IMG/VR virus record: IMGVR_UViG_3300045988_149625
Source of the DNA: a virus
Length of the DNA stretch: 64,000 nt
Strand: one strand, 5' to 3'
Under the pieces are notes generated by a model. That model was not told the DNA's origin. It saw only the letters and a program-made list of their open reading frames with translations, and ran no database searches. This document shows, one piece after another, positions 4,815-28,409 of this stretch; position 1 is the first letter of the stretch; each line of letters opens with the position of its first letter. The translations under genes were made by a program, and so were the position numbers.

Positions 4815-5204
4815 ATGATTCCCAGAGAAGATGTAAAAGATTACATAGGATTACCTTTTGTACAGGAAAAGGACGGATACGCTTGGGGATGTCTTGCTCC
4901 TTTTTATCAAATTCACCCAGAATTTGAGCATATTAAAGCATATAGGTATCCTGTAAGTGAGGATGCTAATATGCTAAAGCATTTTAAAAGCCATTTTAAA
5001 GAAGTTGATTTAGAAGATGCCGTTTATGGGGATGTTTTGGTTATAAAATTACCTATGAATCAATGGCATTTAGCAGTGTATTTAGGGGACGGCAAGTTAA
5101 TGCACTGTACATTACATATAGACACAGAAATTACAAGACTTGAAAATTTTTCACAAGGCAGGATAAAGGGGGTATTTAGGTGTCAGGTGCAGCAGCAGCA
5201 TTAG
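4815..5204 (+). CDS. Tail-associated NlpC/P60-like peptidase (gpK-like)
   Basis: 129 aa with a Cys (GCLAPF) and downstream His (HLAVYLGDGKLMHC), consistent with an NlpC/P60 Cys-His catalytic pair. A poly-G tract lies just upstream at 4801-4811. Confidence 0.4.
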   Translation: MIPREDVKDYIGLPFVQEKDGYAWGCLAPFYQIHPEFEHIKAYRYPVSEDANMLKHFKSHFKEVDLEDAVYGDVLVIKLPMNQWHLAVYLGDGKLMHCTLHIDTEITRLENFSQGRIKGVFRCQVQQQH

Positions 5205-8191
5205 GTTGGGTAGGTATTGGTATTGCCCTTGTCAGTATGTTTGTAAGCCTTAGACAACAAAAGAAATTGTCTAAAAAAAAGGCTTCCTATACATACGGTG
5301 AGGGCGCACTGACTACCAACGTGAGCACCACAGACCCAGTACCTATTATATATGGTACTGTAAAAACTGCGGGAAACATGATTTATTCTAGATTAAGTAA
5401 TGATAAAAAAGTGCTCTATAAATTAGTATCTGTTGCGGATGGTAAGATTAAGGGCATAAGGGATTTGCAATTTGATGATTTAGATGCAAATAGCAGTAAG
5501 TATGAGGGCGTTAGCTATAACTATTACTATGGTGATGGCGTACAAGAAATAGATAGCCGTGTAATCGGAGATACACAAGAAGATAAAGCAATGCTAGTTG
5601 GCGGTTTAAAGTATTTGGCATACATAGCTTTACAGGCAAAGGCGAATGAAAATTTAAGCAGTAGTTTTAATGTTACTTGTTTAGTAGACGGTTCTATTGT
5701 AAAGATATATGAGAACGCAAACGATTTGACGCAGTATCGAGAGGAATGGACGGATAATCCTGCATGGTGTGTTTTAGATTTTATGACACGTTATAATGGA
5801 TGCGGAATGAGCCTTGATGAAATTGATGTTCAAAGTTTTATAGACGGAGCTAAATTCTTTAAAGAAAAGAATTATACATTAAATTTAGCTTTAGATGAAC
5901 AAAGAAGCCGTTTAGAGTGGATACAGTATATGTTAAACTGTTGCCGTTCACTGCTTATATATAGAGCAGGTAAATATAGTTTATTCGTGGAAAAGGCAGA
6001 TGAGGTAGTTCAATCATATACTCCGAATGACATACACGATTTGAGTATATGGTTCAGTCCTTTATCAGAAGTCCCAGATATTTATAGAATTACTTATATT
6101 GACCCTAAAAATGAGTGGGTAAAAGTAAATGCAGAAGCTTCTTTAAGCCCAGATAGCTATTTAAGAAAACAGCCAATGGTTGAAACTTTGGAGCTAATGG
6201 GTGTAACAACTTTTGACCAAGCAAGTAGATTAGCATGGTTCTACTTAAATCAAGCACTGACTTGTCAAACCTACATTTCTTTTAAAACAGATAGACGCGC
6301 TTTAAATAGAACTGTTGGCGATGTAATAGAGGTTACAGACTATGTAACAGAGTTTCAAAAGAAAAAATTTAGAATAATAAAAATTGAAGATGAGCAAAAT
6401 GAAAGTATAAAGCTTACATGTAGAGAGTACAACGAATCTATTTATAGTGAGCAACGTGGAGCGAGTGACCCTGTAATAAATGTTACAGAACTCACTGACC
6501 CGCAACAAACGCCGCCAGAAATAGTATATGTAGGAAATGAGCAAGACTATTATATACTACCAGATAAAACGGTAGTAAGTAATATAATGTTAGATGTAAT
6601 TTATACAGATTGGACTTATAATAAGAGTTTCAATGTTTCGTACCGTAAGAAGGATTCAGATAAGTGGCTTTTTGGTGGAACATTTGATGATGGTACTTAC
6701 AGGGCTGTTATAGAGAATATGGAAATATACGAAACCTACATTTTCAGATTTCAGAATATGAGTAAGTACGGCAAATTTTCAGCATATACTTATTCCCCAG
6801 AGATTTACATTACAGGTAAAAATGTAGCTCCTAATATGCCTTCTAATTTTCACGGTGAAGAGGTGGTAGGAGGTTTTAAACTTTATTGGGACGCTGGTGA
6901 AAAGGATGTAGATTATTATTTGTTATATTTAGGTTCTGTATCAGAAGAAGCTAAAATAGCACAAGTATATGGAACATCTTATTACTATCCTGCAGATGTT
7001 GGTGAATATACTTTTTATTTAGTAGCTGTTGATACAGCAGGTAATCGTTCCACTCCTGCAAGACTACTTTTAGAAATTTTATGCCCCTCAGACGTAAACG
7101 GCTTTGACTGTGTACAGAATGAACGCAACATAGAGTTTCATTGGAATTTAGTGGAAGGAGCTTCTTACTATGTACTTAAAGAGGGTGAGAACTGGGAATA
7201 TGGTAATACCTTAGCAACAAGTTCTGGACATTTCTTTAGTTACCCATATGCACAAGCAACAAGCACTACTTTTTGGATGAAAGCGTATACTGAATATGGC
7301 GTGCCTAGTGTAAACCCTGCATACTGTCAATTAAGTGTAGCATCTATACCTAATAGGAACATGATTTTAGAATATGATGCAGTAGAAGATGGTTGGAGTG
7401 GTAAGAAATATAACATGCACGTAAATGCAGGTGGTATACAATTAGATGCAGGCAAGGTTTATGGGGACTATATATATCCTATGGAGTTAGACCAAGAGTA
7501 TTGCGCAAGAAACTGGACAGAGAAAACTATCAAGCCAGTAAACGCGGAGTTAGAGCTTATGTGGAAGGATGCTCATTTTACATGGGCGAGTGCGAACGCT
7601 AAACGAAGAACTTGGTTTCCATTAGGCATAGATGATATATACAATTCATGGACGGAAATTGCAATATATAATGAAGCAAGTAAAGAGGATATAGTCGAAA
7701 GAATGTCATTGAATGAAACACTTGTTTCAGATAGTGGTAAAAAGCCTGTAGGAAATGTTGGTACACCCACATATGGTGCAGGAAGATTTGAAAAAGGTCT
7801 TGTGTTAGATGGAAAGTGCCGTCCAAAATGGAAAAATTTGCCCATTGATGATGCTTTCTCATTCAGTTTTAATCTTTACGTGCCTTTTGACAGTGTAAAT
7901 AATTACTCGATTCTTACTTTAAGGAATGATTTAGGTGATTATTTATGGCTTCATTATAGAGAAGATGATGATATGTTTGTATGTACCTTTTCAGATGGTA
8001 GAGAGTATGAGTTAAAAGATTTTTCTGGAAAGGGCGATTATCTACATTTTATAATTTCACAAGGCGCAGGATATTTTACATTTGTTATATATGACGTAGG
8101 TTATGATTCCTATGTTATAAATAGAAAGAAAATTTCTACAATGAAGCGATACACGCAGGTAGCTTTGTACGGTGATTTCAATAGGGAATAG
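5180..8191 (+). CDS. Tail tip / host-specificity protein (gpJ-like)
   Basis: 1003 aa, the largest structural ORF after the M/L/K-like genes. It has an N-terminal hydrophobic segment and a beta-rich, FN3-like repeat composition. Confidence 0.5.
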   Translation: MSGAAAALGWVGIGIALVSMFVSLRQQKKLSKKKASYTYGEGALTTNVSTTDPVPIIYGTVKTAGNMIYSRLSNDKKVLYKLVSVADGKIKGIRDLQFDDLDANSSKYEGVSYNYYYGDGVQEIDSRVIGDTQEDKAMLVGGLKYLAYIALQAKANENLSSSFNVTCLVDGSIVKIYENANDLTQYREEWTDNPAWCVLDFMTRYNGCGMSLDEIDVQSFIDGAKFFKEKNYTLNLALDEQRSRLEWIQYMLNCCRSLLIYRAGKYSLFVEKADEVVQSYTPNDIHDLSIWFSPLSEVPDIYRITYIDPKNEWVKVNAEASLSPDSYLRKQPMVETLELMGVTTFDQASRLAWFYLNQALTCQTYISFKTDRRALNRTVGDVIEVTDYVTEFQKKKFRIIKIEDEQNESIKLTCREYNESIYSEQRGASDPVINVTELTDPQQTPPEIVYVGNEQDYYILPDKTVVSNIMLDVIYTDWTYNKSFNVSYRKKDSDKWLFGGTFDDGTYRAVIENMEIYETYIFRFQNMSKYGKFSAYTYSPEIYITGKNVAPNMPSNFHGEEVVGGFKLYWDAGEKDVDYYLLYLGSVSEEAKIAQVYGTSYYYPADVGEYTFYLVAVDTAGNRSTPARLLLEILCPSDVNGFDCVQNERNIEFHWNLVEGASYYVLKEGENWEYGNTLATSSGHFFSYPYAQATSTTFWMKAYTEYGVPSVNPAYCQLSVASIPNRNMILEYDAVEDGWSGKKYNMHVNAGGIQLDAGKVYGDYIYPMELDQEYCARNWTEKTIKPVNAELELMWKDAHFTWASANAKRRTWFPLGIDDIYNSWTEIAIYNEASKEDIVERMSLNETLVSDSGKKPVGNVGTPTYGAGRFEKGLVLDGKCRPKWKNLPIDDAFSFSFNLYVPFDSVNNYSILTLRNDLGDYLWLHYREDDDMFVCTFSDGREYELKDFSGKGDYLHFIISQGAGYFTFVIYDVGYDSYVINRKKISTMKRYTQVALYGDFNRE

Positions 8192-10002: not shown

Positions 10003-10806
10003 ATGGGTGTAACAGAGCATGTTTTAAACATACAAAGTAGTAATAATAAAAAAGTAGTTCCTTTATATGATACACCTACTTGTAGCTATACAGGAAGGTC
10101 TTTACCAATTAAATTAGCTAATGGTTCAACTGTGTATGCACCTCTAGGTGTTACAGATGATTTGTATGGAACACAGCTTTGGGTAGAAATTGATGGAGCG
10201 TCTTATAGAGTGGTTGAGCAAAGTGTGCAAGGTATTCAAGGTGTAAACTTTGATAAGACTGTAAAAATAGAATTTAGTGGTAGCGGTGAGCGCACAGCTA
10301 AATATGATACTTTTTATTTTGTAGCACCAAGAAGAACCAAGTTTCATTATAAAAGTATGGTTAATTACGGACAAACTGGTTGGGGATACAGCTCTGATAG
10401 GTGGCAACGTAGTGATATATGGATAAACTTAGATGGAAATCTACTTGTTAAGAAAACTTTTAGACGCAGTGCAGGCATTAATTGGAAAACTCTATATGAT
10501 GGGGACATTGAATTAGATGCAGGAACACATCGAATGGAACTTTGGCTTTTGGGGCAAGGCTCTAGTAAAGATAGTCATTTAACTGTTTGTTATGCTTGGA
10601 ACAATGATTTGTTAATGTCTGGACAACAATTTGTCCAATATTCAAGTCCAGGTACGTATGACTTCACAGTTCCTAAGGGTGTGGAAAGCATTACCATCGT
10701 GACTGTTGGTGGTGGCGGTGGTGGAGCAGGGTATGGATACACCCCCCAAGAAGATAGTGGTAGCGGCCCCAGTCAAGGTGAAGGTAGTGGAGGCGAAGGA
10801 GCATGA
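10003..10806 (+). CDS. Glycine-rich tail fibre protein
   Basis: 267 aa. The C-terminus reads VTVGGGGGGAGYGY...GSGGEGA. Confidence 0.4.
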   Translation: MGVTEHVLNIQSSNNKKVVPLYDTPTCSYTGRSLPIKLANGSTVYAPLGVTDDLYGTQLWVEIDGASYRVVEQSVQGIQGVNFDKTVKIEFSGSGERTAKYDTFYFVAPRRTKFHYKSMVNYGQTGWGYSSDRWQRSDIWINLDGNLLVKKTFRRSAGINWKTLYDGDIELDAGTHRMELWLLGQGSSKDSHLTVCYAWNNDLLMSGQQFVQYSSPGTYDFTVPKGVESITIVTVGGGGGGAGYGYTPQEDSGSGPSQGEGSGGEGA

Positions 10807-11285
10807 GTAGTTATCCTTATACACAAGTTATTGTAGATGCTAAAGGCACAGATGGTGGAAATTCTAAGGCTTCTTTAAATGGAGCAGATATAATTCTTGC
10901 AACTGGGGGCAGTGGTGCAAAATATAAAAGAACTCGTACCCATGTTAATTGGCACAGCTCTACTGAGTCCGAAGAAAAGCAGGTAGGTAGGGGTGGTACA
11001 CCAAATGGCATAGATGGCACTTATTCAGTATCTGGCACAAAGGGGTATGATATTCGTCCAGAGGTTACTAGAGGTTCTTATGGTAGCGGGGGAGGTTGTT
11101 CAAATACTAATACAGTTGTATATCCTGTATCTGGGGGCAGTGGTGGTATTAATATTGTCACCATTCCTGTTAAGGAAGGGGATAGATTACAAATCACTGT
11201 TGGAAGCGCGGGTGCAGGTGGTGGAATTGGTTTAGCAGGAAATGCAGGAGCGGTAGCATTATGGTATTACAAATTGGGAAACTAA
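10803..11285 (+). CDS. Glycine-rich tail fibre protein
   Basis: 160 aa with GGSG/GAGGG tracts. Coupled to the upstream ORF by an ATGA overlap. Confidence 0.4.
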   Translation: MSSYPYTQVIVDAKGTDGGNSKASLNGADIILATGGSGAKYKRTRTHVNWHSSTESEEKQVGRGGTPNGIDGTYSVSGTKGYDIRPEVTRGSYGSGGGCSNTNTVVYPVSGGSGGINIVTIPVKEGDRLQITVGSAGAGGGIGLAGNAGAVALWYYKLGN

Positions 11286-12484
11286 TAGATAATATATTAG
11301 TGGCAAAATTTATAACAAATAATACATTAAAAGAGTTTAAAGATTTAGTTGGGGAAGGAGATTATGTGGATATTACAGGGGTCGACATTCAAGAGGGTGA
11401 CAAATTTGTTAATGGGGATGCTATTCATTGTGAGGGCGATTCATTATCCAAGGAAGGTGTAAAAGCACTTTATCTGATGCTAGGCAGTGCGTGTAATATG
11501 TCTTGCAGACATTGTACACAAACTCCTATTAAAGGTAATGTTGCTTTTCCTACTACTGAGTTAAGTAAGGATGTACTAGATTTTATAGTAAATTGGGATA
11601 AAAATGGCGGTGGAAGGTTATATTTTTGGGGCGGTGAACCTTTACTTTATTGGAATACAATAAAGAAACTTATAGAAGAGTTTGAAAAAATGGGAATGAG
11701 AAATACTTCTTATCGCATTTTCACCAATGGTCTATTACTTTCAAATTCCATTGTAGACTTTTGTAACAAACATAATATATGGGTAATTATGAGTTATGAT
11801 GCACCTAACCCCTTAGCTGCAAGAAACGCCATGCCGTCAGAGAGAAATATAGAAGCTTTCTTGTTGGCAGAAAAAAGAACAGTAAATGGTGTATACAATG
11901 CCTTAAACTGTGATATGGTAGCTGCTTTTAAATACTTGGAGTCAAAATTTCCTAATACTGAGGTAACTCTAGGGTTTATAAATGTATTATGGGATATACC
12001 AAAAGACTTATACGCTTTTGGAAAAGGCGAAGTAAGAAAGGCGGTAAAAGATTTATTTGAATATTATAAAGAAACAAGGGATTCAAATGTACACAGGTGG
12101 TTTGAAACTAAACTTAGAAGAGGGAATTACTTTTCCATTGAAGAATTTATGCTTTCCCCATTTCCTCCCTGTGCACCTGGGCGTATCTCTTTATCTATAG
12201 ATTTTGCAGGTAATATAATAAGATGCCACAATGACGATAAAGTGGTTGCAAATATTAAAGATGATTATTCAGATATATTAAAAGCACATGAAATGGAGTG
12301 GCTAAAGTTATTGCCAAGAAATTGTGCAGAATGTGAATGTCTACCTTTGTGCAGGTCAATTTGTCCAATAGCCTATAAGAAAGAAAACAAAGAAGAATTT
12401 GTACAATGTGATTATATAAGGGAGTTTTTTAGCGCGGTGCAGGAATGTGCCGATGATTTTTGGAGAATGGAAGGTGAGATGTAA
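11261..12484 (+). CDS. Radical SAM enzyme with C-terminal SPASM-like Cys-rich domain
   Basis: CNMSCRHC is a Cx3Cx2C motif. The GGEPLL motif is present. The C-terminus has CAECECLPLCRSIC plus additional cysteines. The true start may be an internal Met just before the motif. Confidence 0.75.
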   Translation: MVLQIGKLIDNILVAKFITNNTLKEFKDLVGEGDYVDITGVDIQEGDKFVNGDAIHCEGDSLSKEGVKALYLMLGSACNMSCRHCTQTPIKGNVAFPTTELSKDVLDFIVNWDKNGGGRLYFWGGEPLLYWNTIKKLIEEFEKMGMRNTSYRIFTNGLLLSNSIVDFCNKHNIWVIMSYDAPNPLAARNAMPSERNIEAFLLAEKRTVNGVYNALNCDMVAAFKYLESKFPNTEVTLGFINVLWDIPKDLYAFGKGEVRKAVKDLFEYYKETRDSNVHRWFETKLRRGNYFSIEEFMLSPFPPCAPGRISLSIDFAGNIIRCHNDDKVVANIKDDYSDILKAHEMEWLKLLPRNCAECECLPLCRSICPIAYKKENKEEFVQCDYIREFFSAVQECADDFWRMEGEM

Positions 12485-14419
12485 ATGGCAAGCTTTCATA
12501 ACTGGACAGGTGATGAATTAATTGATACACAAGTCCCACAGTTTTTAAATGAAGATAATGCAGCAACACAGGAGAAATTAGACACTAAATTTAATAAATC
12601 CTTAGATATAGCAGAAGCCTCAGACTTAAACAATTTTAAGGATGAGGGGTTCTACTGCTGTAATTCTAATTCTCGTGCTGAAACTATTTTAAATTGTCCT
12701 ACTAATTATGCTTTCGGTTTAATGGTATGGGGTAAAGGCGAAATAGTCTATCAAGAAGTGCGCGAATTTAACAGAGGCTCTAACCAAGATTACAATAACT
12801 GTTGGAGAAGAAGTTATTCTGGGGGCGGACAAGGTGTGTGGTCTAACTGGCAGAAAGTGGCTTATGCAGCTACTACTTTAGCAGAATACGGAATAACAGA
12901 CGGTATGGGCAAGAACGCCACAAACAGTGTGGGTGTGACAGATATTATTAAAAGAAGTATTAATACGTCGTACTTGCGTTTAACAGGTGGCAATACATTT
13001 GATAAAAGTGCAACTCTTCAACTCTGCGGAGGTACTTATGCAACAAACGCAGGACAGTTTTTATTAAAAGCAGCAGATTCAGCACACTCAGCAACTCTTT
13101 CAGGTAATCCTTCTGGGCTACTTAAATGGAATGATAAAAATATAGTACGTTCAGTAAATAATTCTGTTGCAGATGAACATGGTAATGTAACTTTACTGTT
13201 CCCCGACTCAGATGTAACGCAGGAAGGCGCGGGGTACTGGAAGCCTAATGAATCAGTACAAGAAGGGGATATACGTTATGTGTATGGTAGAGGAAACACA
13301 GGTGTTGTTTTAAAATGTGTGAAAGCAGGAATAACAGGAGCAGAATTACCAGATTTAGAGGCTGCTTCAAATGCTGTGCAATTAGTAACAGAAACTACTA
13401 CTGAGGTAAAACCTTTTGATATATTGGATTATGTATCACAAGTACCAGAATATTACACACGCCCTAGTTTGTATACAGTTTCAAAAAAATCTATAACTAT
13501 ACCTAAGGGGTTACGTGTAAGAATTGGTGATAAAGGTTATGAGAGTGTTAGTACAACTACATTAAGCACTACATCTTTGGGAAGTTTGGCAGCAAAAGAT
13601 GTTTATATATATGCTTGTGCTCCTATTACTTTATCTACTGAGCCAATATTTGTACTTTCATTAAATAGTACAGTACCTAGTGGGTATACCGCAGAAAACA
13701 GTCGCAAGATTGGCGGTTTTCATTGCTTATGTGCAGATGTTGGTACAATAAGTGGACATACTTTAAGTGGTTATGTAGCAGGTGACATACTTCCTGCTTC
13801 TGCATGGGATTTAATTCATCGTCCACGATGTTCCCCCGAAGCAATGGTGTATTGTGATACGGTGGACTTTTGGGTCGATATATATTTGGATAGTTGGGAT
13901 GGTAACAAATTAGTATCTGTATACAAAGGTGTTACAGCAGACGGAACTTCCACTAAAAAGTTTCATGGTGAGCTTTTTGTAGATGAGCTTGCAAAATTGA
14001 ATAAAAGACTACCTCCAAGAAGAGTATTTCAAGCAATAATGAAAGGCTCAAATGAACGCACCAATGTTAAAGGTTCGAAAGACGTAAATACTACTGGTGG
14101 TAATGTAGATACAGCAGGTCGAAGAATGATAAGTAATTATGGTTGTGAAGATGGCTGCGGTTTCTTGTGGCAATGGTCTGATGAACTAGGTTTTGCAGGT
14201 GGTAGTGCATGGACAGATTCAGTATATAATTCAAGTGTCGATTCTGAAAGAATTGGACAAACTTATGGAACTTTGTATAGAGCTGCGCTGGGCGGTTGCT
14301 GGGTTCACGGCGGTTCTTGTGGTTCGCGGTCGGTGTTTTGCAGCCATTCCTCGGCTCTTGTCAGTGCTTATTTTGGCGGTCGCGGCGCTTGCGAGCCGAA
14401 GGTCGCAAAGTTCTATTAG
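12485..14419 (+). CDS. DGR target protein: tail fibre / receptor-binding protein with C-terminal variable region
   Basis: 644 aa. The last ~40 codons (nt 14276-14394) are the VR copy of the downstream TR. The C-terminus GGCWVHGG...YFGGRGAC is typical of DGR C-type-lectin-fold variable proteins. Confidence 0.85.
   Translation: MASFHNWTGDELIDTQVPQFLNEDNAATQEKLDTKFNKSLDIAEASDLNNFKDEGFYCCNSNSRAETILNCPTNYAFGLMVWGKGEIVYQEVREFNRGSNQDYNNCWRRSYSGGGQGVWSNWQKVAYAATTLAEYGITDGMGKNATNSVGVTDIIKRSINTSYLRLTGGNTFDKSATLQLCGGTYATNAGQFLLKAADSAHSATLSGNPSGLLKWNDKNIVRSVNNSVADEHGNVTLLFPDSDVTQEGAGYWKPNESVQEGDIRYVYGRGNTGVVLKCVKAGITGAELPDLEAASNAVQLVTETTTEVKPFDILDYVSQVPEYYTRPSLYTVSKKSITIPKGLRVRIGDKGYESVSTTTLSTTSLGSLAAKDVYIYACAPITLSTEPIFVLSLNSTVPSGYTAENSRKIGGFHCLCADVGTISGHTLSGYVAGDILPASAWDLIHRPRCSPEAMVYCDTVDFWVDIYLDSWDGNKLVSVYKGVTADGTSTKKFHGELFVDELAKLNKRLPPRRVFQAIMKGSNERTNVKGSKDVNTTGGNVDTAGRRMISNYGCEDGCGFLWQWSDELGFAGGSAWTDSVYNSSVDSERIGQTYGTLYRAALGGCWVHGGSCGSRSVFCSHSSALVSAYFGGRGACEPKVAKFY
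14276..14394 (+). repeat. DGR variable region (VR)
   Basis: 119 bp, collinear with TR at 14492-14610. All 23 mismatches in the aligned 116 bp fall at TR adenines. The 3' 26 bp (ggcggtcgcggcgcttgcga...) are identical to TR and GC-rich, like an IMH element. Confidence 0.9.
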
Positions 14420-14423
14420 AACT
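14409..14423 (+). promoter_or_regulatory. Hairpin immediately downstream of VR (agttcta t tagaact)
   Basis: Perfect 7-bp inverted repeat 14 nt after the end of VR homology, spanning the target stop codon. It is analogous to the DGR target-recognition hairpin. Confidence 0.4.
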
Positions 14424-14491
14424 AGGTATACGGCTACATGAAGTTGTTAAGGAACACGAAGTAGTCTTGAATATACTGGGTTGTGGTTGTT

Positions 14492-14610
14492 AAAAGAGCT
14501 AAACTAGGCGGTAACTGGGATAACAGCAGTTCTTGTAGTTCGCAGTCAGTGAATTGCAACAATTCCTCAGCTAATGTCAATGCTAATTATGGCGGTCGCG
14601 GCGCTTGCGA
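14492..14610 (+). repeat. DGR template region (TR)
   Basis: Adenine-rich (AAC/AAT codons) invariant copy of VR, located between the target gene and the RT. The ORF-track call 14483..14695 across this region is an artefact of TR copying coding sequence. Confidence 0.9.
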
Positions 14611-14865
14611 TACGGAGAGAGCTATTCCTTCGGCTGAACCACAATCCATTCTAGCAGAGAAATACTGTATAGAAAAACACACAACAGGAGTATAGAAGGG
14701 CTAGTAGTGTAAACGAACGTCATTCTATAAAACTCCGTATCTTTAAATAAAGGAGAAATAAACTTGAAAAGAATTGGGAATTTATGAACTAAAATTATAG
14801 ATAAAGAAAATATTAAGGAGAGTATTTTAAGCGCTGCAAAACATAAGAAAAAGCGCCCTGCGGTA

Positions 14866-16158
14866 ATGAAGGTACTCAATAATATAGACGAATATGTAGA
14901 AAAGATTCACAAATTGTTAGTAAACAAGGAGTATAAAGTTTCGGAATATTATATAAAAGCAATTTATGAGCCTAAGCTAAGGCTTATTTACATATTACCC
15001 TTTTATCCAGATAATATAATATTTCACTGCATAATGAGGGTATTAGAGCCTATATGGGACAGTAGGTTTATTTATGATACTTATTCATGCAGGAAGGGTA
15101 AGGGGCAACATAAAGGAATGTTAAAGAGCACTATATACGTAAAGAATTACAAATACTGCTTAAAATGTGATATAAGTCAGTTTTACCCAAGCCTTAATCA
15201 TAGAATACTAAAGGAAAGTTTCCGTTGGAAAATCAAAGATAAGGACGTATTGGAGCTACTTGACTTAATAGTAGATAGTGTTTCTGTGCGGGAAAGGAAT
15301 CTAGATTTTTTAAAGTGCTGCAAGGCAAGTGATAAACATATGATGGAACAGAAGCTTCAAACATTAAAAGAAGAGTTCCCAGAAGGAGATTTCGGTGTGC
15401 CTATTGGTAATTATCCTTCACAATGGTTCGGAAACCTTTATATGAACCCTTTAGATAACCTTATTAAGTACTGTTTCCATGCAAAAGCATATGTAAGATA
15501 CTGCGACGATTTTGTTGTTTACAGTAATGATAAAAAGTGGTTACATAGTGTAGCTGCGGAGATAGAGAACTTTTGTAAGGAAAGATTAAAATTAAAGATG
15601 AGTAAGTGTCGGGTATTTCCTACGAAGTGTGGAGTAGATTTCTTAGGGTATAAAGCATTTCCCAGTGGTAAGATTCTTTTGCGTAAAAGGACAGCAAAAA
15701 GAGTCCATAAACAAATAAAAGCATTATGGAAAGAGCTATCTTATGGGAACTATGAACAAATGCTTTCTAAAGTGGGAAGCAGAATGGGGTATTTAAGGTA
15801 CGCTAAAAGTTATAATTTTAGATTACAAATAAAGATTAAAGAGTTGGAAAGGGAACTAAAAAGGAGGATTAGTATGGTAGGTTATCCAAAAAATTTAAGC
15901 ACAAAAGAAGATTATGAGTACGTGAGAACACATTTCCCTAAAAGTGATTGGCAGAAAGACTTTGAAAGTCTTTTACCTCGCAAGGAATGGTTCTTCATTG
16001 AAGAAACTAAGGTTAATAAAAAAGAAGATGCTACTCATAAAACAGAACCCTCTGACGATGAAGGGGTATTCTATCGTTATGAATTGAGGGGGGTAAGTAA
16101 GGCAGCAGAAATTGGATATACGGTAGAAGAAGTAGAGAAGATTCTAAGGAGTGAATAA
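14866..16158 (+). CDS. DGR reverse transcriptase
   Basis: YCDDFVVY is the YxDD motif. IGNYPSQWFGN is the DGR-specific GxxxSQ motif. The N-terminal RT-like sequence (..ENIKESILSAAKHKKKRPAV) continues in frame upstream to 14788 without an ATG. Confidence 0.9.
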   Translation: MKVLNNIDEYVEKIHKLLVNKEYKVSEYYIKAIYEPKLRLIYILPFYPDNIIFHCIMRVLEPIWDSRFIYDTYSCRKGKGQHKGMLKSTIYVKNYKYCLKCDISQFYPSLNHRILKESFRWKIKDKDVLELLDLIVDSVSVRERNLDFLKCCKASDKHMMEQKLQTLKEEFPEGDFGVPIGNYPSQWFGNLYMNPLDNLIKYCFHAKAYVRYCDDFVVYSNDKKWLHSVAAEIENFCKERLKLKMSKCRVFPTKCGVDFLGYKAFPSGKILLRKRTAKRVHKQIKALWKELSYGNYEQMLSKVGSRMGYLRYAKSYNFRLQIKIKELERELKRRISMVGYPKNLSTKEDYEYVRTHFPKSDWQKDFESLLPRKEWFFIEETKVNKKEDATHKTEPSDDEGVFYRYELRGVSKAAEIGYTVEEVEKILRSE

Positions 16159-16160: not shown

Positions 16161-17168
16161 ATGGTAGTAGATAATACAGTACAGTGGTTACAGCTTAATT
16201 TAAAAGAAACAGGTTTGCCAGTAGGGTTTGAATACTTTACAATGAACCCAAACATACCCGCAGGAAGTTTGCCGCTACAAGGTGGTCTTTATAGCAGATT
16301 AGCATATTCAGACCTTTGGGAATGGGTACAGAAACAGACAGGATATTTAAAGGCTGAGTCAGAGTGGCAGGAACTTGCGGTCAGTAATAGTGGAAATGTG
16401 CCGTTTTACAGTAGCGGTGATGGTAGCACTACATTTAGAGTTCCTGCGCTGAAATGCTGGGTGCGGGGTGCTAGTAGCATTAGTGAGGTTGGTGGCTATT
16501 TGACTGCTGGATTGCCGAATATTACAGGAAGTATGGGACTAGCTGGTGCTCCTATATCAAATGCTAATAATAGAAACTTATATCCAAGCATTCTAAATGG
16601 TGTGTTTGAGATACAAGAAGGGCAAGAAGAACATTGGGCGGGTGAGCATAAGGCAAATACTTTTTCAAAAGATGCGATTATATTTAACGCTTTTCTTTCT
16701 AATCCCATCTACGGTGCATCCGATACTGTACAACCACCATCCATCGTAGGCTTATGGTGTGTAAAGGCTTATGGCACTGTTACAAATGTTGGTAGCACGG
16801 ATGTGGCTAATTTAGCACAAGGACTAACACAAACTGAAACACGTATAAGTGCATTGGAAACAAACAAGGTTGACAAGGCTGGTAATGCATGGGTGGTAGA
16901 ATCTTACCGCAACGGCACTGAATGGTATAGAGTATGGTCAGATGGTTGGGTAGAACAAGGTGGATATTTTGAAAAGAAAAGAGACACGGCTTTAACTGTT
17001 ACATTTTTGAAGCCTTACGTAGATAATGAATATACGTTTGCTTGTATGCTAGCTAGAGAAAATGGTTCTACACCAAAACTAACCACAAAGACTACAACAG
17101 GTTTTTCTATGTACACTGCCTCATGGGACTATGATATGTATTGGCGCACAGAAGGTAAGGGGGCTTAA
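16161..17168 (+). CDS. Tail fibre protein
   Basis: 335-aa Gly/Ser/Thr-rich ORF immediately after the RT. No VR-like copy is detectable in it. Confidence 0.4.
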   Translation: MVVDNTVQWLQLNLKETGLPVGFEYFTMNPNIPAGSLPLQGGLYSRLAYSDLWEWVQKQTGYLKAESEWQELAVSNSGNVPFYSSGDGSTTFRVPALKCWVRGASSISEVGGYLTAGLPNITGSMGLAGAPISNANNRNLYPSILNGVFEIQEGQEEHWAGEHKANTFSKDAIIFNAFLSNPIYGASDTVQPPSIVGLWCVKAYGTVTNVGSTDVANLAQGLTQTETRISALETNKVDKAGNAWVVESYRNGTEWYRVWSDGWVEQGGYFEKKRDTALTVTFLKPYVDNEYTFACMLARENGSTPKLTTKTTTGFSMYTASWDYDMYWRTEGKGA

Positions 17169-17174: not shown

Positions 17175-17654
17175 ATGTTAGGCACAAAAATCTATAAAAC
17201 TGATATGAGCAATTACACTGATTGTGCTATTTGGTGTAATCAAAACAAAGCAACTATTGAGGATAGGGGCACTTATTACGAAGTGGTAACTTTACCACTC
17301 CCGACGCTGCAAGAAATTAAGGTTGCCAAAATCGCAGAGCTTAAAGCCGAGAGGGATGCAAAAGAGGTTGAGCCGATTACCTACAACGGCAACAGCTATG
17401 ATTACGATGACAAGGCACGTGACCGCATTAATGCAGCTATTGTTGCCCTGTCTGTACAAGGCACTGGTGCTGACTTAATGTGGACTACCGCTGACAACAA
17501 AGAAGTCCCTGTGACTGCCGACGATTTACGTATGGTAATCGCTGCTGTGGCGGTACGTAGCAATGCTTTGCATACTGCCTACCGTATAGCGAAAGAAAAA
17601 GTTGAAGCAGCGCAGAATAAAGAAGAAGTTGAAGCTATAATATTAAATGTGTAA
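17175..17654 (+). CDS. Tail fibre assembly / chaperone-like protein
   Basis: 159-aa ORF following the fibre gene. Assignment is by position only. Confidence 0.3.
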   Translation: MLGTKIYKTDMSNYTDCAIWCNQNKATIEDRGTYYEVVTLPLPTLQEIKVAKIAELKAERDAKEVEPITYNGNSYDYDDKARDRINAAIVALSVQGTGADLMWTTADNKEVPVTADDLRMVIAAVAVRSNALHTAYRIAKEKVEAAQNKEEVEAIILNV

Positions 17655-21514: not shown

Positions 21515-21703
21515 ATGTTAGTAGGCGTTAATTCAGATGAGAGAATTGTCATTAAGAAGGATAATCATATTGAAATTGCTTATTTAGATGATGCAGGAAT
21601 CCCACACATTACATTAAATTTTTTTAAGTTAAACAGTAAAGAAGTGCAGGCGTTTTGGGAGTTGGTTAATAAATTTAGGGGAGATATAAATGATAACTTA
21701 TGA
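21515..21703 (+). CDS. Hypothetical protein
   Basis: 62-aa ORF, coupled. Confidence 0.3.
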   Translation: MLVGVNSDERIVIKKDNHIEIAYLDDAGIPHITLNFFKLNSKEVQAFWELVNKFRGDINDNL

Positions 21704-23177
21704 AGAAAAACAGGGGCAGAAGTTGTTTAAAGGATTAACTCTTGAACAGCTTTCTAAGATTAAAGAAGATTTAACTTTTGATAACCCACAATATCAGAGT
21801 GCTATCCATTACAGTAAGTGGGGAAGTGTGCGTATTCCTTCAAAATTAAGATACTATAAACTAATTTCAAATGATATTTTAGTTCCTTTGGGGTACGAGG
21901 CACGTCCTTGTGCGGTTTTTGTTAAGAGCGACGCAAAGGATGATGTTGTCGAATACCCCCCTTTTCAATTAGAATTACGTGATATTCAAAAGAAAGCAGT
22001 TTCTACTTTTAGGGGCTTAGGAACACTTGTTTTACCAACAGGTACTGGAAAGAGTATTTGCGGTCTTTATTTGGCAGGTAAATTAGGTAAGAAAACTTTA
22101 ATCGTGGTAAATAAAGATGATTTAGTAGATGGCTGGATTCAAGATGCAAAACTAGCCTATAATGATGCTTTGGATATTGGTTTGGTTAAAGGTAAGGTAT
22201 TCAAAATTGGTGAACATATTACACTTACTACAATACAAACACTTTCTCGTTTAGGTGCGGATAAGCTTAAAAAATTGCATAATGAAATTTCCATGCTGAT
22301 TGTAGATGAGGTACATCGTGCAGGTGCAGTTAGTTATCAAGTTCTTAATGAGTTCCCTGCATACATTAGGTTAGGTCTGACAGCTACTAAAATGCGTAAT
22401 GATGGCTTAGTAGATGTTATTGACTTACTCTGCGGCAGAACCTTATTTGATGGGACAATGTGTGAAACAGATGCAATAATTCCTGCTGAGAACATTCATG
22501 TCATAAGCAGGAAAAGCAATATTTTTTGGCGGCCTAAAAAGGCGTATTATAGTGTACACACAAAGAGAACTATAGAAGATTATGTCTGCAATCACAAAAC
22601 TTATAAACGTGGTACTATTGAATGGGTATTAAAAATGGAAGAGCTTGTATCAGAAGGTCTTGTGAAGCCATATCCATTACGTTTGCATGATGCTTATGAT
22701 AAAATTGCAACAGATGAGGAATTTAATAACTTAGTTTGTGAGGATATTAAAAATGCTTATATGCAGAACAAGTCTTGCATAGTTTTCTGTAAAACTATTG
22801 AGCAGCTAGAACTTCTTTATAATAAGTTAATTCCTACCTGCCCTAAAATTCAGAAATTTTATGGGAATATGTCTGATTCAAAGGCAGATATTAAAGCACG
22901 TGCTGAAAGTAAGGAAGTTCTTGTAACATTAGCAACGCTTTCCATTGCGTGTGAGGGTACAAATGTTAAAGCTTGGGAATATGGGTTTTTGGTAGCAGAT
23001 ATTGCAAATGACAAAGACTTGATACAAGCACTTGGAAGGTTGCGGAGAACAGTTGAGGGAAAGACTGATGTTTATATTTTTGACTACCAACATCCTTTAA
23101 TGGTAGCCATTAAAAACCATTGGTCTAAGCGTGTAGAATGTTATAAATCTCTTGGAATACCTATTGACAACTTTTAA
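21690..23177 (+). CDS. Superfamily-2 DEAD/DEAH-box-like helicase
   Basis: Walker A PTGTGKS, DEVH box (IVDEVHRAG), and C-terminal helicase motifs (QALGRLRR). Confidence 0.75.
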   Translation: MITYEEKQGQKLFKGLTLEQLSKIKEDLTFDNPQYQSAIHYSKWGSVRIPSKLRYYKLISNDILVPLGYEARPCAVFVKSDAKDDVVEYPPFQLELRDIQKKAVSTFRGLGTLVLPTGTGKSICGLYLAGKLGKKTLIVVNKDDLVDGWIQDAKLAYNDALDIGLVKGKVFKIGEHITLTTIQTLSRLGADKLKKLHNEISMLIVDEVHRAGAVSYQVLNEFPAYIRLGLTATKMRNDGLVDVIDLLCGRTLFDGTMCETDAIIPAENIHVISRKSNIFWRPKKAYYSVHTKRTIEDYVCNHKTYKRGTIEWVLKMEELVSEGLVKPYPLRLHDAYDKIATDEEFNNLVCEDIKNAYMQNKSCIVFCKTIEQLELLYNKLIPTCPKIQKFYGNMSDSKADIKARAESKEVLVTLATLSIACEGTNVKAWEYGFLVADIANDKDLIQALGRLRRTVEGKTDVYIFDYQHPLMVAIKNHWSKRVECYKSLGIPIDNF

Positions 23178-25571: not shown

Positions 25572-25967
25572 ATGAACAGAAAAGGTGAACTTTCTAATAG
25601 AGTAGCGGCCATCGTAGCTATCGATTACGATACAATTTTTAGTAAAAAACCTTCTTTAAAGGATTTTTTTACGAAAAGTAAGTTACAACGCACCTTTAAG
25701 CAGGAATATAGGGATTTAACCCTAAAGTTGTATTCTGCTGGGTTTAGTATTTATATTATAAGTAAGGATTTAAAAAAGACAAAATCAGAGCTTGACGACT
25801 TGTATTTTGGTAGGTATATATTCTATACAGACTTTATACAGTATGAGAATCTTAATGATTTAGCAGTAGATTGTAGGTCACTTTTTAAATATTTTATTTG
25901 CGAAACCCCAAAAGGTGCGTTTTTAGATAATGTGTATTCCTTAGAGTCTTTCAAGGAGTTGTTATAA
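25572..25967 (+). CDS. Hypothetical protein
   Basis: 131-aa ORF. Confidence 0.3.
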   Translation: MNRKGELSNRVAAIVAIDYDTIFSKKPSLKDFFTKSKLQRTFKQEYRDLTLKLYSAGFSIYIISKDLKKTKSELDDLYFGRYIFYTDFIQYENLNDLAVDCRSLFKYFICETPKGAFLDNVYSLESFKELL

Positions 25968-27223
25968 TGTCAGTAGAAAATAAGTTAATTTTAAAACTCC
26001 TAGAGAGTAAGGATTGGGACGTTGTAGTTGATAAAGGTATTACACAGAACTACTTTACAGGCTCTAACAAACGTGCCTTTAAGTGGATAAGTAACTTCAA
26101 ACTTAACTATGGTACATTACCAGACCTAGATACTTTTAAGAAACACTTCCCTGAAGTAAATCTTCTAGTAGATGCTAGAGAATGTACTGCTTACTATTGC
26201 GACGAGGTTCGTAAGAAGATTAGGCAGAATAAGTTGGTGTCTGTACTAGAGGGGGCTGCGGATAAAATAAATGCAGGTAATGTAGATTCTGTCTATACAG
26301 ATTTAACGAAGTTACTCATGGAAGTCAACACAGAGTTCACTTTTGCCGAGAAAGTGGATATTGGTAGACAGACTGAGGAACGCTTTAAAGAGTACGAGCT
26401 TAATAAGATAACAGGCGGTATGACAGGTATTCCATTAGGTATTTTACCAATAGATAAGCAAACTGGCGGTGTAAAGGATATGGACTTGTACACTTTCCTC
26501 GGAAAATCTGGTTCTGGCAAGAGTTGGATGCTTTGTATTTTAGCTGCCAATCTTATTAAGGCAGGGTATAAAGTAATGCTACTTACTAAAGAAATGTCCC
26601 CTAAACAGCTCTTAAAGCGTATGGATGCTATCATGGCGTGTGTTAGTTATAATGCTTTGAAGAATGGTAAATTACCTGCAAATGAAGAAGCACAGTACAA
26701 AACATACTTAGAACAATACGCTCCTAAATACAAGGACAAACTTAGTATTGAGCTTGTTACAAATGGTGTTGATGAAGCTATCAGTAAAATAGATAACTTT
26801 CAACCAGACATTGCTTTGGTAGATGGCGGTTATCTGTTGAGTGAGGGCGCAGACCCAGAAGATTGGAAAGCAGTTATTGGTGTATGGAAAGCTTTCAAAG
26901 TATTTGCTTTAAGCAGAAAAATACCAGTCATTCTTACATCACAATTAACTGATAAGAATACTGTTGCATACTCAACTGGTTTAAAGCAATATTGTGACGG
27001 TATTTGGGCTATGAAGCAGGACGATGTACAAAGGGCAGCCAAAGAGATTCAAATAGAGAACATTAAGATTCGTGACGGTGAACATTTATTACCCTTTACA
27101 ATGTCTTGGGACTTTTCAAGCTCACCAATGAATTATGAAGTAGTGCATCAAGCATATAACTCTGAAACAAATAAAGGCTTTTTAGTGAAAGATGAGCCAA
27201 TAAGCTTAAAGAAGGTAGAATAG
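25967..27223 (+). CDS. DnaB-like replicative helicase
   Basis: Walker A GKSGSGKSW, and the DnaB-type motif GIPLGILPIDKQTGG upstream of it. Confidence 0.75.
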   Translation: MSVENKLILKLLESKDWDVVVDKGITQNYFTGSNKRAFKWISNFKLNYGTLPDLDTFKKHFPEVNLLVDARECTAYYCDEVRKKIRQNKLVSVLEGAADKINAGNVDSVYTDLTKLLMEVNTEFTFAEKVDIGRQTEERFKEYELNKITGGMTGIPLGILPIDKQTGGVKDMDLYTFLGKSGSGKSWMLCILAANLIKAGYKVMLLTKEMSPKQLLKRMDAIMACVSYNALKNGKLPANEEAQYKTYLEQYAPKYKDKLSIELVTNGVDEAISKIDNFQPDIALVDGGYLLSEGADPEDWKAVIGVWKAFKVFALSRKIPVILTSQLTDKNTVAYSTGLKQYCDGIWAMKQDDVQRAAKEIQIENIKIRDGEHLLPFTMSWDFSSSPMNYEVVHQAYNSETNKGFLVKDEPISLKKVE

Positions 27224-27434: not shown

Positions 27435-28409
27435 ATGTTAGCAGACGAAATGGTTTCTTTGTGTAGAGAGCTAGGTTTGGAAAAAATCAAAGTACGTGGA
27501 GATAATGTTACGTTTTGTTGTCCTTCACATGGCGAGAATAATCCTTCCTGTGGAATCTCTATTACAAAAGAAATTGGAGGTTGTTTTGCTTGTGGATGGC
27601 ACTTCAATTTAATTCAGTTAGTAGCTTTTTGTAAGCAGATTCAAGAATGGGAAGCTATTGAATATCTCAACAGTTATTTTAATCGCGATTTTCGTAAAGT
27701 TGATTGTGCAGGGAAGTTCCCACTTTATAGTGAGGATAAGGCAAGCGTTTCAAGCTTTCTTCCGCACACAGCACTTGCCCCTTTTCGGAGCGGCGAAATT
27801 TCGCACCCATACTTGATAAAGCGTGGTTTTAGTGAGCAAGATTTTATAAATTTTAAGTTAGGGTGGGATAGTAATTTAAAACGTATTACAATTCCTTTCT
27901 ACGATACTAAGGGGAATTTACTAGGTTTTAGCGGTAGAGCGGTTCTAAATGAATCTAATCCGAATTATGGAGTTGTTTATGGTAATTCCCCTAAGTATCT
28001 AATTTATAATAATTTTAAAGCTAAAGACACGTTGTTTCCCCTAAATCTATATAAAAAGTCAGACACGCTTATTTTAGTTGAGGGCTTGTTAGATGCCTTG
28101 TGGCTGCATAAAATGCAGTTTACTAATACGCTTTCCGTTATAAGCGCGCAGATAAGTAGGGCGCAGCTAGAGATTTTAAAATCACTAGACGTTAAAACAA
28201 TTATTCTTTGTCTTGACAATGATAAGTATGGGGAAGCAGGTTGTAAAAAGCTATATGACAATTTAAAAGGCAATTTTGTATTTAAGAAAGTGATTTTTCC
28301 AGAAGGTAAAAAAGACGTTCAAGAATGTACAAAAGAAGAATTAGATTTCATGTTTAAGAATTTGATTAATTATCCAGTGAGAAATTTTAAGTTTTATGAA
28401 GGAGAATGA
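27435..28409 (+). CDS. DNA primase (DnaG-like: zinc-binding plus TOPRIM)
   Basis: CCPSHGENNPSC...CFACGWH zinc finger. TOPRIM acidic motifs (LVEGLLD, LCLDNDKYGE). Confidence 0.7.
   Translation: MLADEMVSLCRELGLEKIKVRGDNVTFCCPSHGENNPSCGISITKEIGGCFACGWHFNLIQLVAFCKQIQEWEAIEYLNSYFNRDFRKVDCAGKFPLYSEDKASVSSFLPHTALAPFRSGEISHPYLIKRGFSEQDFINFKLGWDSNLKRITIPFYDTKGNLLGFSGRAVLNESNPNYGVVYGNSPKYLIYNNFKAKDTLFPLNLYKKSDTLILVEGLLDALWLHKMQFTNTLSVISAQISRAQLEILKSLDVKTIILCLDNDKYGEAGCKKLYDNLKGNFVFKKVIFPEGKKDVQECTKEELDFMFKNLINYPVRNFKFYEGE

Follow-up and report, generated by a model that had tools for sequence, protein, structure and literature searches.

The phage element described here is supported as a genuine diversity-generating retroelement (DGR), which rewrites the tip of an Mtd-like tail fiber at the positions where its template carries adenine. 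The assignment is supported by adenine-only mismatches between the variable repeat (VR) and the template repeat (TR), a target gene homologous to Mtd, a reverse transcriptase (RT) nearest to bRT, and TR changes that are mirrored in the VR. As a whole, the locus is very probably best explained as an active DGR in a tailed phage of ∼100 kb that is common in the human gut. DGRs are a well-known kind of element and this is an ordinary one, with unusual accessory and translational features: it has no Avd, a small uncharacterized domain is fused to its RT, and a conserved in-frame stop codon lies near the start of the RT gene. The arrangement is the hallmark one, with the VR in the 3′ part of the target gene and a non-coding TR adjoining the RT on the same strand. 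Its features, numbered within the window (the whole 64-kb stretch of DNA analyzed), are as follows.

12485..14419, + strand: Mtd-like tail-fiber/receptor-binding protein, 644 aa (stop TAG 14417-14419)
14276..14394, + strand: VR, codons 598-637 of the target; conservative homology start 14279
14389..14408, + strand: VR-end hairpin, TTGCGA-GCCGAAGG-TCGCAA, within the target gene
14492..14610, + strand: TR, non-coding and intergenic, with 34 adenines
14611..14763, + strand: TR-to-RT spacer of 153 nt, presumably the 3′ portion of the DGR RNA
14749..14766, + strand: Shine-Dalgarno sequence AAAGGAG (14749-14755) and TTG start (14764-14766) of the ancestral RT frame
14764..15873, + strand: RT proper (RVT_1), residues 1-370 of the reconstructed protein
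14785..14787, + strand: in-frame TGA at the conserved Trp-8 position of DGR RTs
14866..14868, + strand: ATG (Met-35), alternative internal start, chosen by gene callers
15874..16158, + strand: ‘ORF B’ domain, 94 aa, C-terminal and fused in frame to the RT (stop TAA 16156-16158)

The repeat pair and its target gene

VR and TR align without gaps at an offset of 216, the TR lying 72 bp beyond the end of the target gene. All 25 mismatches over the 119 bp fall where the TR has adenine (A>G 12, A>T 9, A>C 4), and nine further adenines of the TR are unchanged in the VR; the chance of 25 mismatches all landing on the 34 adenine positions is P = 1.6e-18. A sequence-only reading of the same DNA had counted 23 mismatches in 116 bp, every one at a TR adenine and with G, T or C in the VR, and re-alignment over 14279-14394 returns exactly this count; the tabulation by TR base that it had proposed places no mismatch elsewhere. 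The 116-bp figure may be the safer of the two, because repeat positions 1-3, which read TAT in all four VRs and AAA in the TR, perhaps lie beyond the true homology. Similarity collapses outside the repeat limits, and no second VR is present in the window, where the next-best stretch matches 38 of the 85 non-adenine TR positions. In the VR reading frame, 14 TR adenines occupy codon position 1 and 14 occupy position 2. The VR had also been taken for the very end of the fiber gene, which in fact continues for 25 bp, TAG stop included.

The target is homologous to known tail proteins over its C-terminal half. Residues 329-442 correspond to the Pfam ‘Mtd second domain’ (PF21916, E 7e-22), residues 316-641 to the tail protein family phrog_11262 (E 1e-57), and residues 338-638 align with residues 76-377 of BPP-1 Mtd (PDB 1YU0, 1yu0_A, E 4e-18). 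The homology runs through the C-type-lectin (CLec) domain of Mtd to the C-terminus, which would place the variable residues on a CLec fold, in agreement with the earlier proposal that the diversified C-terminus is the CLec-fold tip of a tail protein. Neighboring genes encode further tail-fiber proteins and a radical SAM enzyme.

At the 3′ end, the block shared identically by VR and TR measures 21 bp rather than the 26 bp first reported, the last mismatch being at repeat position 98. This block had been likened to an IMH. An identical block does exist, but two sister genomes (L001 and L085) carry TR-A/VR-G mismatches within it up to position 109, leaving an invariant stretch of ∼10 bp (GYGCTTGYGA) that is the same in VR and TR and is followed directly by divergent flanks. 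The IMH-like appearance thus seems to reflect simply a block poor in adenine. The hairpin is likewise real in modified form: described as a 7-bp stem following the VR, it has a 6-bp stem (TTGCGA/TCGCAA) and an 8-nt loop within which the fold prediction adds one C-G pair, and it overlaps the VR end. In an alternative reading, the loop holds an inner CC/GG stem capped by a GAA triloop. A 45-nt piece spanning this region folds as DNA at -10.1 kcal/mol, a stability that is unexceptional against shuffles (z -1.3). The hairpin was also picked up by a terminator-like scan, is identical in L001, L002 and L085, and is not formed at the equivalent TR flank in DNA folds. It is probably a target-recognition (cruciform) element; in archaeal DGRs, hairpins with a GRA triloop have been described within the target gene (PMC4372165).

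Comparison of sister genomes extends the adenine signature beyond a single phage. Across five assemblies the TR is identical or near-identical, while variation among the VRs of four lineages is concentrated at TR-adenine sites, and the mismatches of L001 (25/25) and L085 (26/26) all lie on TR adenines. Between the window and L001, seven of eight TR differences recur in the VR of the respective genome, as does the single non-adenine TR difference from L085; the other differences are new TR adenines that stand opposite G in the VR. No non-adenine VR/TR mismatch occurs in the window, L001 or L085. Because all non-adenine TR changes reappear in the VR of the same genome, copying from TR to VR appears to be ongoing, although recombination of the whole VR-TR block could mimic part of this co-variation. 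More broadly, TR/VR pairs are present at 39 distinct related loci, and nearly all of their mismatches coincide with adenines in the TR.

The reverse transcriptase and its fused domain

The RT carries both motifs previously noted in it, IGNYPSQ (residues encoded at 15403-15423, within IGNYPSQWFG, 15403-15432) and YCDD (15499-15510), the former matching the DGR signature [I/V/L]GxxxSQ as defined in PMC7826257. Its best solved relative is bRT (8ub7_A, E 3.6e-34, vs 4e-15 for the group II enzyme GsI-IIC), and profile searches return the same order (3e-63 vs 1e-29). Residues R73 and I214 are the equivalents of bRT R74 and I181, and an insertion of ∼35 aa relative to bRT separates motifs 2a and 3. 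Proximity to bRT together with the two motifs would place the enzyme with the DGR RTs, as first proposed.

Avd, the accessory protein of BPP-1-type systems, is a basic four-helix bundle of ∼130 aa. The sequence-only reading held that the element lacks it, and no Avd-type Pfam family is found among the 83 small ORFs of the window. That description is nevertheless incomplete, since a conserved 94-aa domain of accessory type forms the end of the RT ORF. ORF B is acidic (pI 5.1) and opens with an ATG of its own, preceded by AGGAGG. Its stand-alone homologs are 98-102 aa long, and the family comprises 342 clusters; among 87 loci, 58 encode ORF B separately, following the RT, and 12 have it fused to the RT. 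In relatives it is usually preceded by ORF A, a small basic OB-fold (SSB-like) gene that the window phage lacks. Structurally, the AF2 model of ORF B (pLDDT 88) has an alpha-alpha-beta3-alpha-alpha fold and not a helical bundle. Searches of Pfam, PHROG and NCBIfam returned no match to the sequence, and the model yielded no fold match and no recognizable motif. Synteny and fusion suggest that ORF B may act as an RT cofactor in this clade.

The start of the RT gene and its in-frame TGA

The conserved RT N-terminus begins at TTG 14764 and not at ATG 14866. Homologous N-termini (MKRxGNLW...) align from this TTG, phrog_1423 matches from residue 1, and the Shine-Dalgarno sequence and TTG are conserved in sister genomes. 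The TTG start is further favored because only with it does the TR-to-RT spacer, at 153 nt, fall in the family range (121-248 nt, mostly 125-180 nt); the 255 bp given earlier applies if translation starts at ATG 14866. The minimum-free-energy fold of the spacer is no better than shuffles (z -0.9), and its match to Rfam RT-14 is weak (24 bits, E 0.73, 14628-14729).

The frame opened by this TTG is interrupted at codon 8 by TGA, at a position occupied by W, F or Y in all other clades. The TGA is common to five independent assemblies (the window, L001, L002, L003 and L085). Both the TGA and the true RT start had gone unnoticed in the sequence-only reading. The RT downstream is under purifying selection: codons 35-369 give dN/dS of 0.05-0.20 at pS 0.06-0.12 in four TGA-carrying genomes, and 81 synonymous and 32 non-synonymous variants occur in the RT across the five. 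We favor occasional read-through of the UGA by tRNA-Trp, which would yield a little full-length RT; conserved in-frame stops under purifying selection have been documented in bacteria (PMC7918605).

The TGA could instead mean that the RT is made only in N-terminally truncated form, or not at all. The first of these is a plausible, if less likely, alternative: the enzyme would be made solely by initiation at the clade-specific AUG-35, and the TTG...UGA would be a 7-codon leader peptide, regulatory or vestigial, with no read-through. Gene callers pick this ATG, and Met-35 is found in the TGA clade and at one distant locus (L078), the other clades having K, R, Q, I or L. Between the window and L001, moreover, the first 34 codons show four non-synonymous changes to one synonymous, compared with a dN/dS of 0.08 downstream. 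Yet ATG 14866 has no obvious Shine-Dalgarno sequence upstream and lies 79 nt beyond the TGA, and truncation would remove a segment (KRxGNLW..I...N) that bRT and all other RTs of the family conserve. Across the five genomes, the 34 N-terminal codons remain open in 5/5 and carry six synonymous and six non-synonymous variants, fewer non-synonymous than the ∼1:4 expected under neutrality; with 12 variants, the difference from the RT body is not significant (Fisher p 0.18). These codons may be under constraint.

An improbable reading is that the TGA killed the RT in the ancestor of the clade, leaving the VR as a frozen record of old mutagenesis. The premature stop at codon 8 is what such a fossil would show, and decay of such RTs does occur, since nonsense codons turn up sporadically in related RTs of other clades (L006, L014, L016, L028, L034); L002 also has a further stop, a TAA within ORF B, and its TR is a corrupted hybrid. 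Against this, RT and ORF B have been under strong purifying selection since the TGA arose (dN/dS 0.05-0.2), the TR adenines are all retained, and the non-adenine TR substitutions that separate the TGA lineages have all been copied into their VRs.

Less probable still is an intact RT gene in a phage, or a host, for which TGA is a sense codon (code 4 or 25, or recoding of stop codons by the phage). Stop codons are known to be recoded in gut phages, and here TGA replaces a codon for Trp, which code 4 would predict. However, TGA terminates 14 of the 75 long + strand ORFs, late tail genes included (for example, ORFs ending at 8649, 9386 and 10806), and treating it as sense raises the + strand ORF total only from 17,485 to 18,149 aa. 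The other Trp codons in intact ORFs are all TGG, though by construction, and no suppressor or other tRNA was found in the window plus ∼10 kb of relatives' flank (∼75 kb of the ∼100-kb genome).

A different identity for the RT (group II intron, retron or defense RT), with the repeat pair as a coincidental duplication, is extremely improbable: NCBIfam does return only group II, retron and Drt models and no DGR-specific one, but all are far below cut-off (TIGR04416 105 vs 300 bits, retron St85 54 vs 235), whereas bRT leads the solved relatives by 19 orders of magnitude, the motif is IGxxxSQ and not QGxxxSP, Rfam finds no intron or retron RNA family, and both the improbability of adenine-only mismatches and the similar pairs at the 39 related loci argue against coincidence.

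Proposed mechanism and relation to known systems

In the DGR reading, with RT made by UGA read-through, the TR would be transcribed, probably together with the tail-fiber operon and the 153-nt spacer, and the RT would make a cDNA of it that is faithful except opposite adenines. This cDNA would replace the VR at the 3′ end of the Mtd-like receptor-binding gene, re-randomizing ∼20 codons of the CLec-fold tip. The VR-specific hairpin and the last ∼10 invariant bases would mark the 3′ boundary of transfer. Homing would proceed without Avd, the RT carrying the fused acidic ORF B domain instead, and RT output would be throttled at translation by the TTG start and the in-frame UGA at the conserved Trp-8 codon. 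A broader proposal, which we regard as speculative and rather unlikely, is that a large DGR clade of phages and archaeal viruses swapped Avd for ORF A (basic, OB-fold, SSB-like) and the novel-fold acidic ORF B, reduced here to ORF B fused to an RT whose synthesis is deliberately rationed by programmed read-through at Trp-8. If so, the window phage would possess a single-polypeptide, Avd-independent DGR enzyme.

The BPP-1 DGR (mtd-avd-TR-brt) has a homologous target, VR-bearing CLec domain included, and an RT with the same IGxxxSQ and YxDD motifs, whose R74 and I181 have equivalents here. In both elements the VR lies at the 3′ end of its target gene, a TR of ∼119 nt precedes the RT on the shared strand, substitution is specific to adenines, and a hairpin sits where the VR ends. 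Unlike BPP-1, the window phage has no avd between VR and TR or elsewhere in the 64 kb, its RT has the internal insertion and the C-terminal domain that bRT lacks, its RT gene starts with TTG and contains an in-frame TGA, and its hairpin lies inside coding sequence with no clear GC14/IMH vs IMH* pair. A BPP-1-type cassette (Architecture B1, target-avd-TR-RT) was considered and rejected, given the short target-to-TR gap, the lack of an Avd family, and the non-bundle fold of ORF B.

Avd-less target-TR-RT elements (‘Architecture A1’) make up 29% of the DGRs surveyed by Wu et al. (2018, PMC5758913), who proposed Avd-independent homing. The window element matches this order, with target (VR), TR and RT on one strand and no recognized accessory gene, but it is not truly accessory-free, because its RT ORF contains a conserved extra domain that relatives encode as a separate gene. 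The CH1 accessory, which flanks Avd-less Bacteroides DGRs of lineage 3a (PMC5758913), is described as an acidic protein of 160-169 aa; ORF B is acidic (pI 4.4-5.1) but measures only ∼100 aa.

Also close are DGRs of the same RT clade from uncultured gut phages and archaeal viruses (IMG/VR L005-L083, Caudoviricetes sp. vir525, ANMV-1), with 37-49% RT identity, phrog_11262/Mtd-type targets, adenine-specific TR/VR mismatches, spacers of ∼125-180 nt, and no avd between VR and TR. Most of them have three genes in the order RT, ORF A, ORF B. In the window clade, by contrast, ORF A is gone, ORF B has become part of the RT ORF, and Trp-8 has given way to TGA. The DGRs of crAss-like phages (e.g., crAssphage LMMB, PMC7290462) belong to a different phage lineage and have no ORF B homolog, but they too reside in gut phages and target tail fibers, with an RT core that is 35-40% identical.

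A DGR of the Mtd/bRT lineage and its repeats

The locus is a genuine diversity-generating retroelement (DGR) of the Mtd/bRT lineage, as the sequence-only reading had proposed: mismatches between the variable repeat (VR) and the template repeat (TR) are confined to adenines, the target is homologous to Mtd, and the reverse transcriptase (RT) is nearest to bRT, the enzyme of Bordetella phage BPP-1. It is very probably active, judging from sequence, and the gut phage that carries it is prevalent. DGRs are common in gut phages, so the element itself is no surprise; it is ordinary as to kind, a variant rather than a new category. Compared with the BPP-1 prototype, it lacks Avd, its RT carries a fused uncharacterized accessory domain, and codon 8 of its RT gene is a conserved UGA, yet the gene is under purifying selection.

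Features of the DGR and the tail module (window coordinates)
5180-8188: J-like central fiber protein, tail module
12485-14419, + strand: target gene, a 644-aa ORF that matches Pfam 'Mtd second domain' at E 7e-22, as well as phrog_11262, a family of tail proteins
14276-14394, + strand: VR, ungapped match to TR at an offset of 216 bp
14389-14408: VR-end hairpin, TTGCGA-GCCGAAGG-TCGCAA
14492-14610, + strand: TR, ungapped match to VR at the same offset
15874-16158, + strand: ORF B unit, formed by the final 94 codons of the RT ORF, with an ATG after AGGAGG
16161-17168 and 17175-17654: fiber proteins, tail module

Residues 338 to 638 of the target align with residues 76 to 377 of crystallized BPP-1 Mtd (1YU0, E 4e-18), across the C-terminal C-type-lectin domain, and the GG.W...GSR...FG.RG.C motifs are common to both. 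PHROG matches of the neighboring genes place the target in the tail module. The target's immediate upstream neighbor is a peptide-maturase-type radical SAM/SPASM enzyme (11261-12484; best NCBIfam matches sub-threshold PapB/SCIFF-type maturases, with a further match to phrog_1802), preceded by two glycine-rich small proteins (10003-10806, 10803-11285). This arrangement is kept in the sister-phage assembly L001 and in the related loci L091 to L094, and the enzyme might cross-link a tail-fiber component. The target gene has 576 aa in L001 versus 644 aa in the window, and the two phages also have fiber genes of different length behind the RT, which argues that fiber parts have been swapped in modules. 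The L001 tail module additionally contains an inserted HNH_3 endonuclease gene (L001 3978-4634).

Ungapped comparison of VR with TR gives 25 mismatches in 119 bp, all 25 on TR adenines (A>G 12, A>T 9, A>C 4; 9 TR adenines unaltered); the probability of all 25 landing on the 34 A positions by chance is 1.6e-18. A repeat finder recovers the identical pair. The earlier count of 23 mismatches in 116 bp is reproduced over 14279-14394, with none beyond TR adenines. Repeat positions 1 to 3, which read TAT in every one of the four VRs available, may not belong to the true VR/TR homology. When the 85 non-adenine TR positions were scored across both strands of the window, only TR and VR themselves reached 85/85; the runner-up site reached 38/85, so the window holds a single target. 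In the VR frame, 14 TR adenines occupy first and another 14 second codon positions, out of 34, in AAY, AGY and similar codons.

Some details of the repeat had to be corrected. The identical 3′ block measures 21 bp, not 26 bp; VR does not reach the gene end but stops 25 bp short of it; and the hairpin described as following VR overlaps its end. The IMH-like 3′ block is identical in the window's two repeats, as had been noted, because it contains no adenines there, but it is not shielded from mutagenesis: new adenines at positions 103 and 109 of sister TRs stand opposite G in VR, except at position 103 of L001, where VR still has A.

A 45-nt piece at the VR end folds at -10.1 kcal/mol, and no such hairpin occurs at the TR flank. 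By eye, the hairpin loop can also be drawn as a GAA triloop on an inner CC/GG stem, which resembles the GRA-triloop hairpins inside the target genes of archaeal DGRs (PMC4372165). No promoter-like site was found between target and TR, the TR-plus-spacer RNA folds no better than shuffled sequences, and neither a VR-flank pattern scan of IMG/VR nor a scan of genome contigs gave a match. A long-range ACGGAG/CTCCGT stem spotted by eye was dropped, being absent from the MFE structure. In Rfam, neither the TR-spacer RNA nor 14 relatives matched a family at the gathering threshold. A weak RT-14 match at 14628-14729 in the TR-RT spacer (24 bits versus a gathering score of 48, E 0.73) is probably due to chance, though it sits exactly where the 3′ domain of a DGR RNA would be expected.

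Continued TR-to-VR copying and its mutational signature

The same cassette occurs in four further assemblies, with RT identities of 96-98%.

Sister-phage assemblies
L001: SRR9866671
L002: ERZ28575021
L003: IMG/VR 3300045988_143506, 99 kb
L085: ERZ1034873, 103 kb

In addition, a 100,248-bp human-gut scaffold (ERZ28578854) shares 13.2 kb of identical sequence with the window, and the window's strain is also found in ERR209452, on a contig that breaks between VR and RT. A search for further VR alleles by exact protein match retrieved no strain other than the window's own. With one of its tail proteins indexed in 1,278 collection blocks, the phage is common.

Mismatches again fall on TR adenines in 25 of 25 cases in L001 and 26 of 26 in L085. 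The sister TRs differ from the window TR at non-adenine positions (13, 73, 93, 102, 105, 111 and 117), and each change is present in the VR of the same genome; TR-to-VR copying therefore went on after the lineages split. The VRs of four lineages differ at 19-24 positions, mostly TR-adenine sites, and 39 further distinct TR/VR pairs upstream of related RTs (IMG/VR; 37-49% identity) have mismatches almost exclusively on TR adenines. The L002 TR (1975-2093) bears the bases of its own VR (1758-1876) at repeat positions 46-89, replacing 8 former adenines; this hybrid reflects either chimeric assembly across the repeat or conversion of TR by VR. Two ~100-kb contigs of the phage begin or end between VR and TR (L003 1-180; L096/L098, ERZ910766 contig ends), as would be expected if assemblers open circular genomes at the DGR repeat.

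Seven TR adenines are G in all four VRs, with 0.9 expected. All seven lie in the dinucleotide 5′-AG-3′, and three fall at third codon positions. TR adenines before G occupy repeat positions 15, 34, 37, 46, 53, 57 and 78 in the window. Among the family's remaining distinct TR/VR pairs (~30 loci), an adenine before G became G in 88% of cases, was kept in 12% and never became C or T (n = 76); the outcome is equal at all three codon positions, and other contexts are mixed. The pattern points to a context-dependent mutational bias, not selection. It matches the context dependence recently reported for bRT together with a template-slippage idea (PMC12875486), and such near-deterministic AG-to-GG change in natural VRs extends laboratory work on context-dependent bRT errors.

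A reverse transcriptase gene with a conserved in-frame TGA

The RT is of the DGR kind, as had been recognized from its motifs. Its best solved relative is bRT (8UB7, E 3.6e-34, versus 4e-15 for group II intron RTs; 3e-63 versus 1e-29 in a family-profile search), and IGNYPSQ corresponds to the [I/V/L]GxxxSQ signature of DGR RTs, as opposed to QGxxxSP in introns and retroviruses (PMC7826257). R73 and I214 are equivalent to bRT R74 and I181, which promote adenine mutagenesis (PMC7826257). An NCBIfam scan gave no DGR-specific family, only group II, retron and Drt matches, all far under their cut-offs; a protein search returned only DGR RTs, at no more than 41% identity, and a megablast of the locus against GenBank phages gave no match.

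Gene callers have the RT begin at ATG 14866. Its frame reaches further upstream, to a TTG at 14764 with AAAGGAG ahead of it, and from this TTG reads LKRIGNL*TKIIDKENIKESIL..., the conserved DGR-RT N-terminus broken by a TGA at 14785-14787. With this TGA read as Trp, phrog_1423 (RT) covers residues 1-398 (E 1e-100). TR-to-RT distances in related IMG/VR loci are mostly 125-180 nt, and the window falls within this range, at 153 nt, only with the start at TTG 14764. Weak starts (TTG, GTG, even ATA-type) are frequent in the RT family. The RT genes of L005, L006, L063, L075 and L087 have no ATG, GTG or TTG before the conserved N-terminus and apparently start at ATA or ATT (IRRYGNLW, IKRHGDLW); the whole L087 clade lacks a canonical start ahead of IRRYGNLW (L087 3890-4000). 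Such non-canonical starts suggest habitually weak RT translation, and the frequency of weak starts is consistent with selection for low RT levels.

The TGA is present in all five assemblies despite differing neighbor codons, at a position where homologs have W (or F/Y). Even so, the RT gene does not look like a pseudogene at the sequence level: among the TGA-carrying genomes, dN/dS over RT codons 35-369 is 0.05-0.20 (pS 0.06-0.12), and variants across the five genomes comprise 81 synonymous and 32 non-synonymous changes. Nonsense codons in other clades are singletons, in one contig each (L006 3776, L014 5088, L016 5934, L028 2325, L034 3120), and so represent either sporadic inactivation or errors of sequencing; in three of these five cases a Trp codon was replaced (TGG to TGA or TAG).

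Two explanations for RT expression are each favored by two observations. Read-through of the UGA would yield the full-length RT; the 34 N-terminal codons stay open, with 6 synonymous to 6 non-synonymous changes against ~1:4 under neutrality (binomial p ~0.02, uncorrected for transition bias), and the Shine-Dalgarno sequence (SD) and TTG are conserved. Alternatively, translation would initiate at the internal Met codon 35 (ATG 14866): Met at this position is found in the TGA clade and elsewhere only at one distant locus (L078), and between window and L001 the first 34 codons carry 4 non-synonymous changes versus 1 synonymous, but no SD precedes this ATG. Phage-wide recoding of TGA is rejected, given that TGA terminates 14 of 75 long ORFs, tail genes included, and that reading it as sense barely lengthens ORFs; selenocysteine was set aside because the position is Trp, Phe or Tyr in all homologs. 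No tRNA gene, suppressor included, was found in the ~75 kb examined, all but ~25 kb of the genome. A TGA-region pattern scan of metagenomes gave no match. Conserved in-frame stops with low dN/dS are documented in bacteria and have been read as expression dampers (PMC7918605). A conserved UGA under purifying selection provides a clean natural setting in which to ask whether leaky translation determines the rate of hypermutation.

A proposed accessory module in place of Avd, and other genes

The earlier observation that no Avd-like ORF is present holds: the 72-bp gap between target and TR is empty, and no Avd-type Pfam family occurs among the 83 small ORFs of the window. Cassettes without Avd made up 29% of a curated DGR set in a 2018 survey, and Avd-independent homing has been proposed (PMC5758913); how such DGRs work has been in question since then. 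The clade of the window RT supplies candidates for this function, namely the acidic ORF B and ORF A, a small basic OB-fold gene of the relatives. ORF B is a separate gene of ~100 aa in most relatives and shows the conserved pattern MxGYPKxLNTKxDYEYVR...W..DF..LL...W...Y....GYT..EV..IL. Among 87 RT loci, a redundant set, it lies next to the RT or is fused with it in 70 (58 separate, 12 fused), ORF A stands between RT and ORF B in 63, and a single locus has neither; all fused loci lack ORF A. L002 has a second stop (TAA), which separates the RT from ORF B.

ORF B is acidic (pI 4.4-5.1) and forms 342 clusters at 50% identity, with no match in Pfam, PHROG, NCBIfam or a GenBank-phage protein search. 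Its confidently predicted structure (pLDDT 88) has an alpha-alpha-beta3-alpha-alpha arrangement with no significant structural neighbor in PDB or BFVD, and no description of the ORF A/ORF B module was found in the literature searched. From synteny and fusion, we infer an accessory role for this module. The window's RT-ORF B polypeptide, lacking ORF A, would be a minimal system to reconstitute and may offer a compact targeted-mutagenesis tool.

Replication module (window coordinates)
21690-23174: ResIII helicase
25967-27220: DnaB-like helicase
27435-28406: primase
32177-33244: RecA

The module also has a family A DNA polymerase, seemingly split into two ORFs (29492-31249 and a small ORF). Elsewhere in the window, an intein carrying a LAGLIDADG endonuclease interrupts an RNA ligase gene (43163-45319; Pfam Intein_splicing, LAGLIDADG_2, RNA_ligase, PHA02142 OB). 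Pfam matches of small ORFs include SpoVS, BclA_C, QueC, ArdA and a PDDEXK nuclease, the first two of which give a hint that the host is a spore-forming Firmicute.
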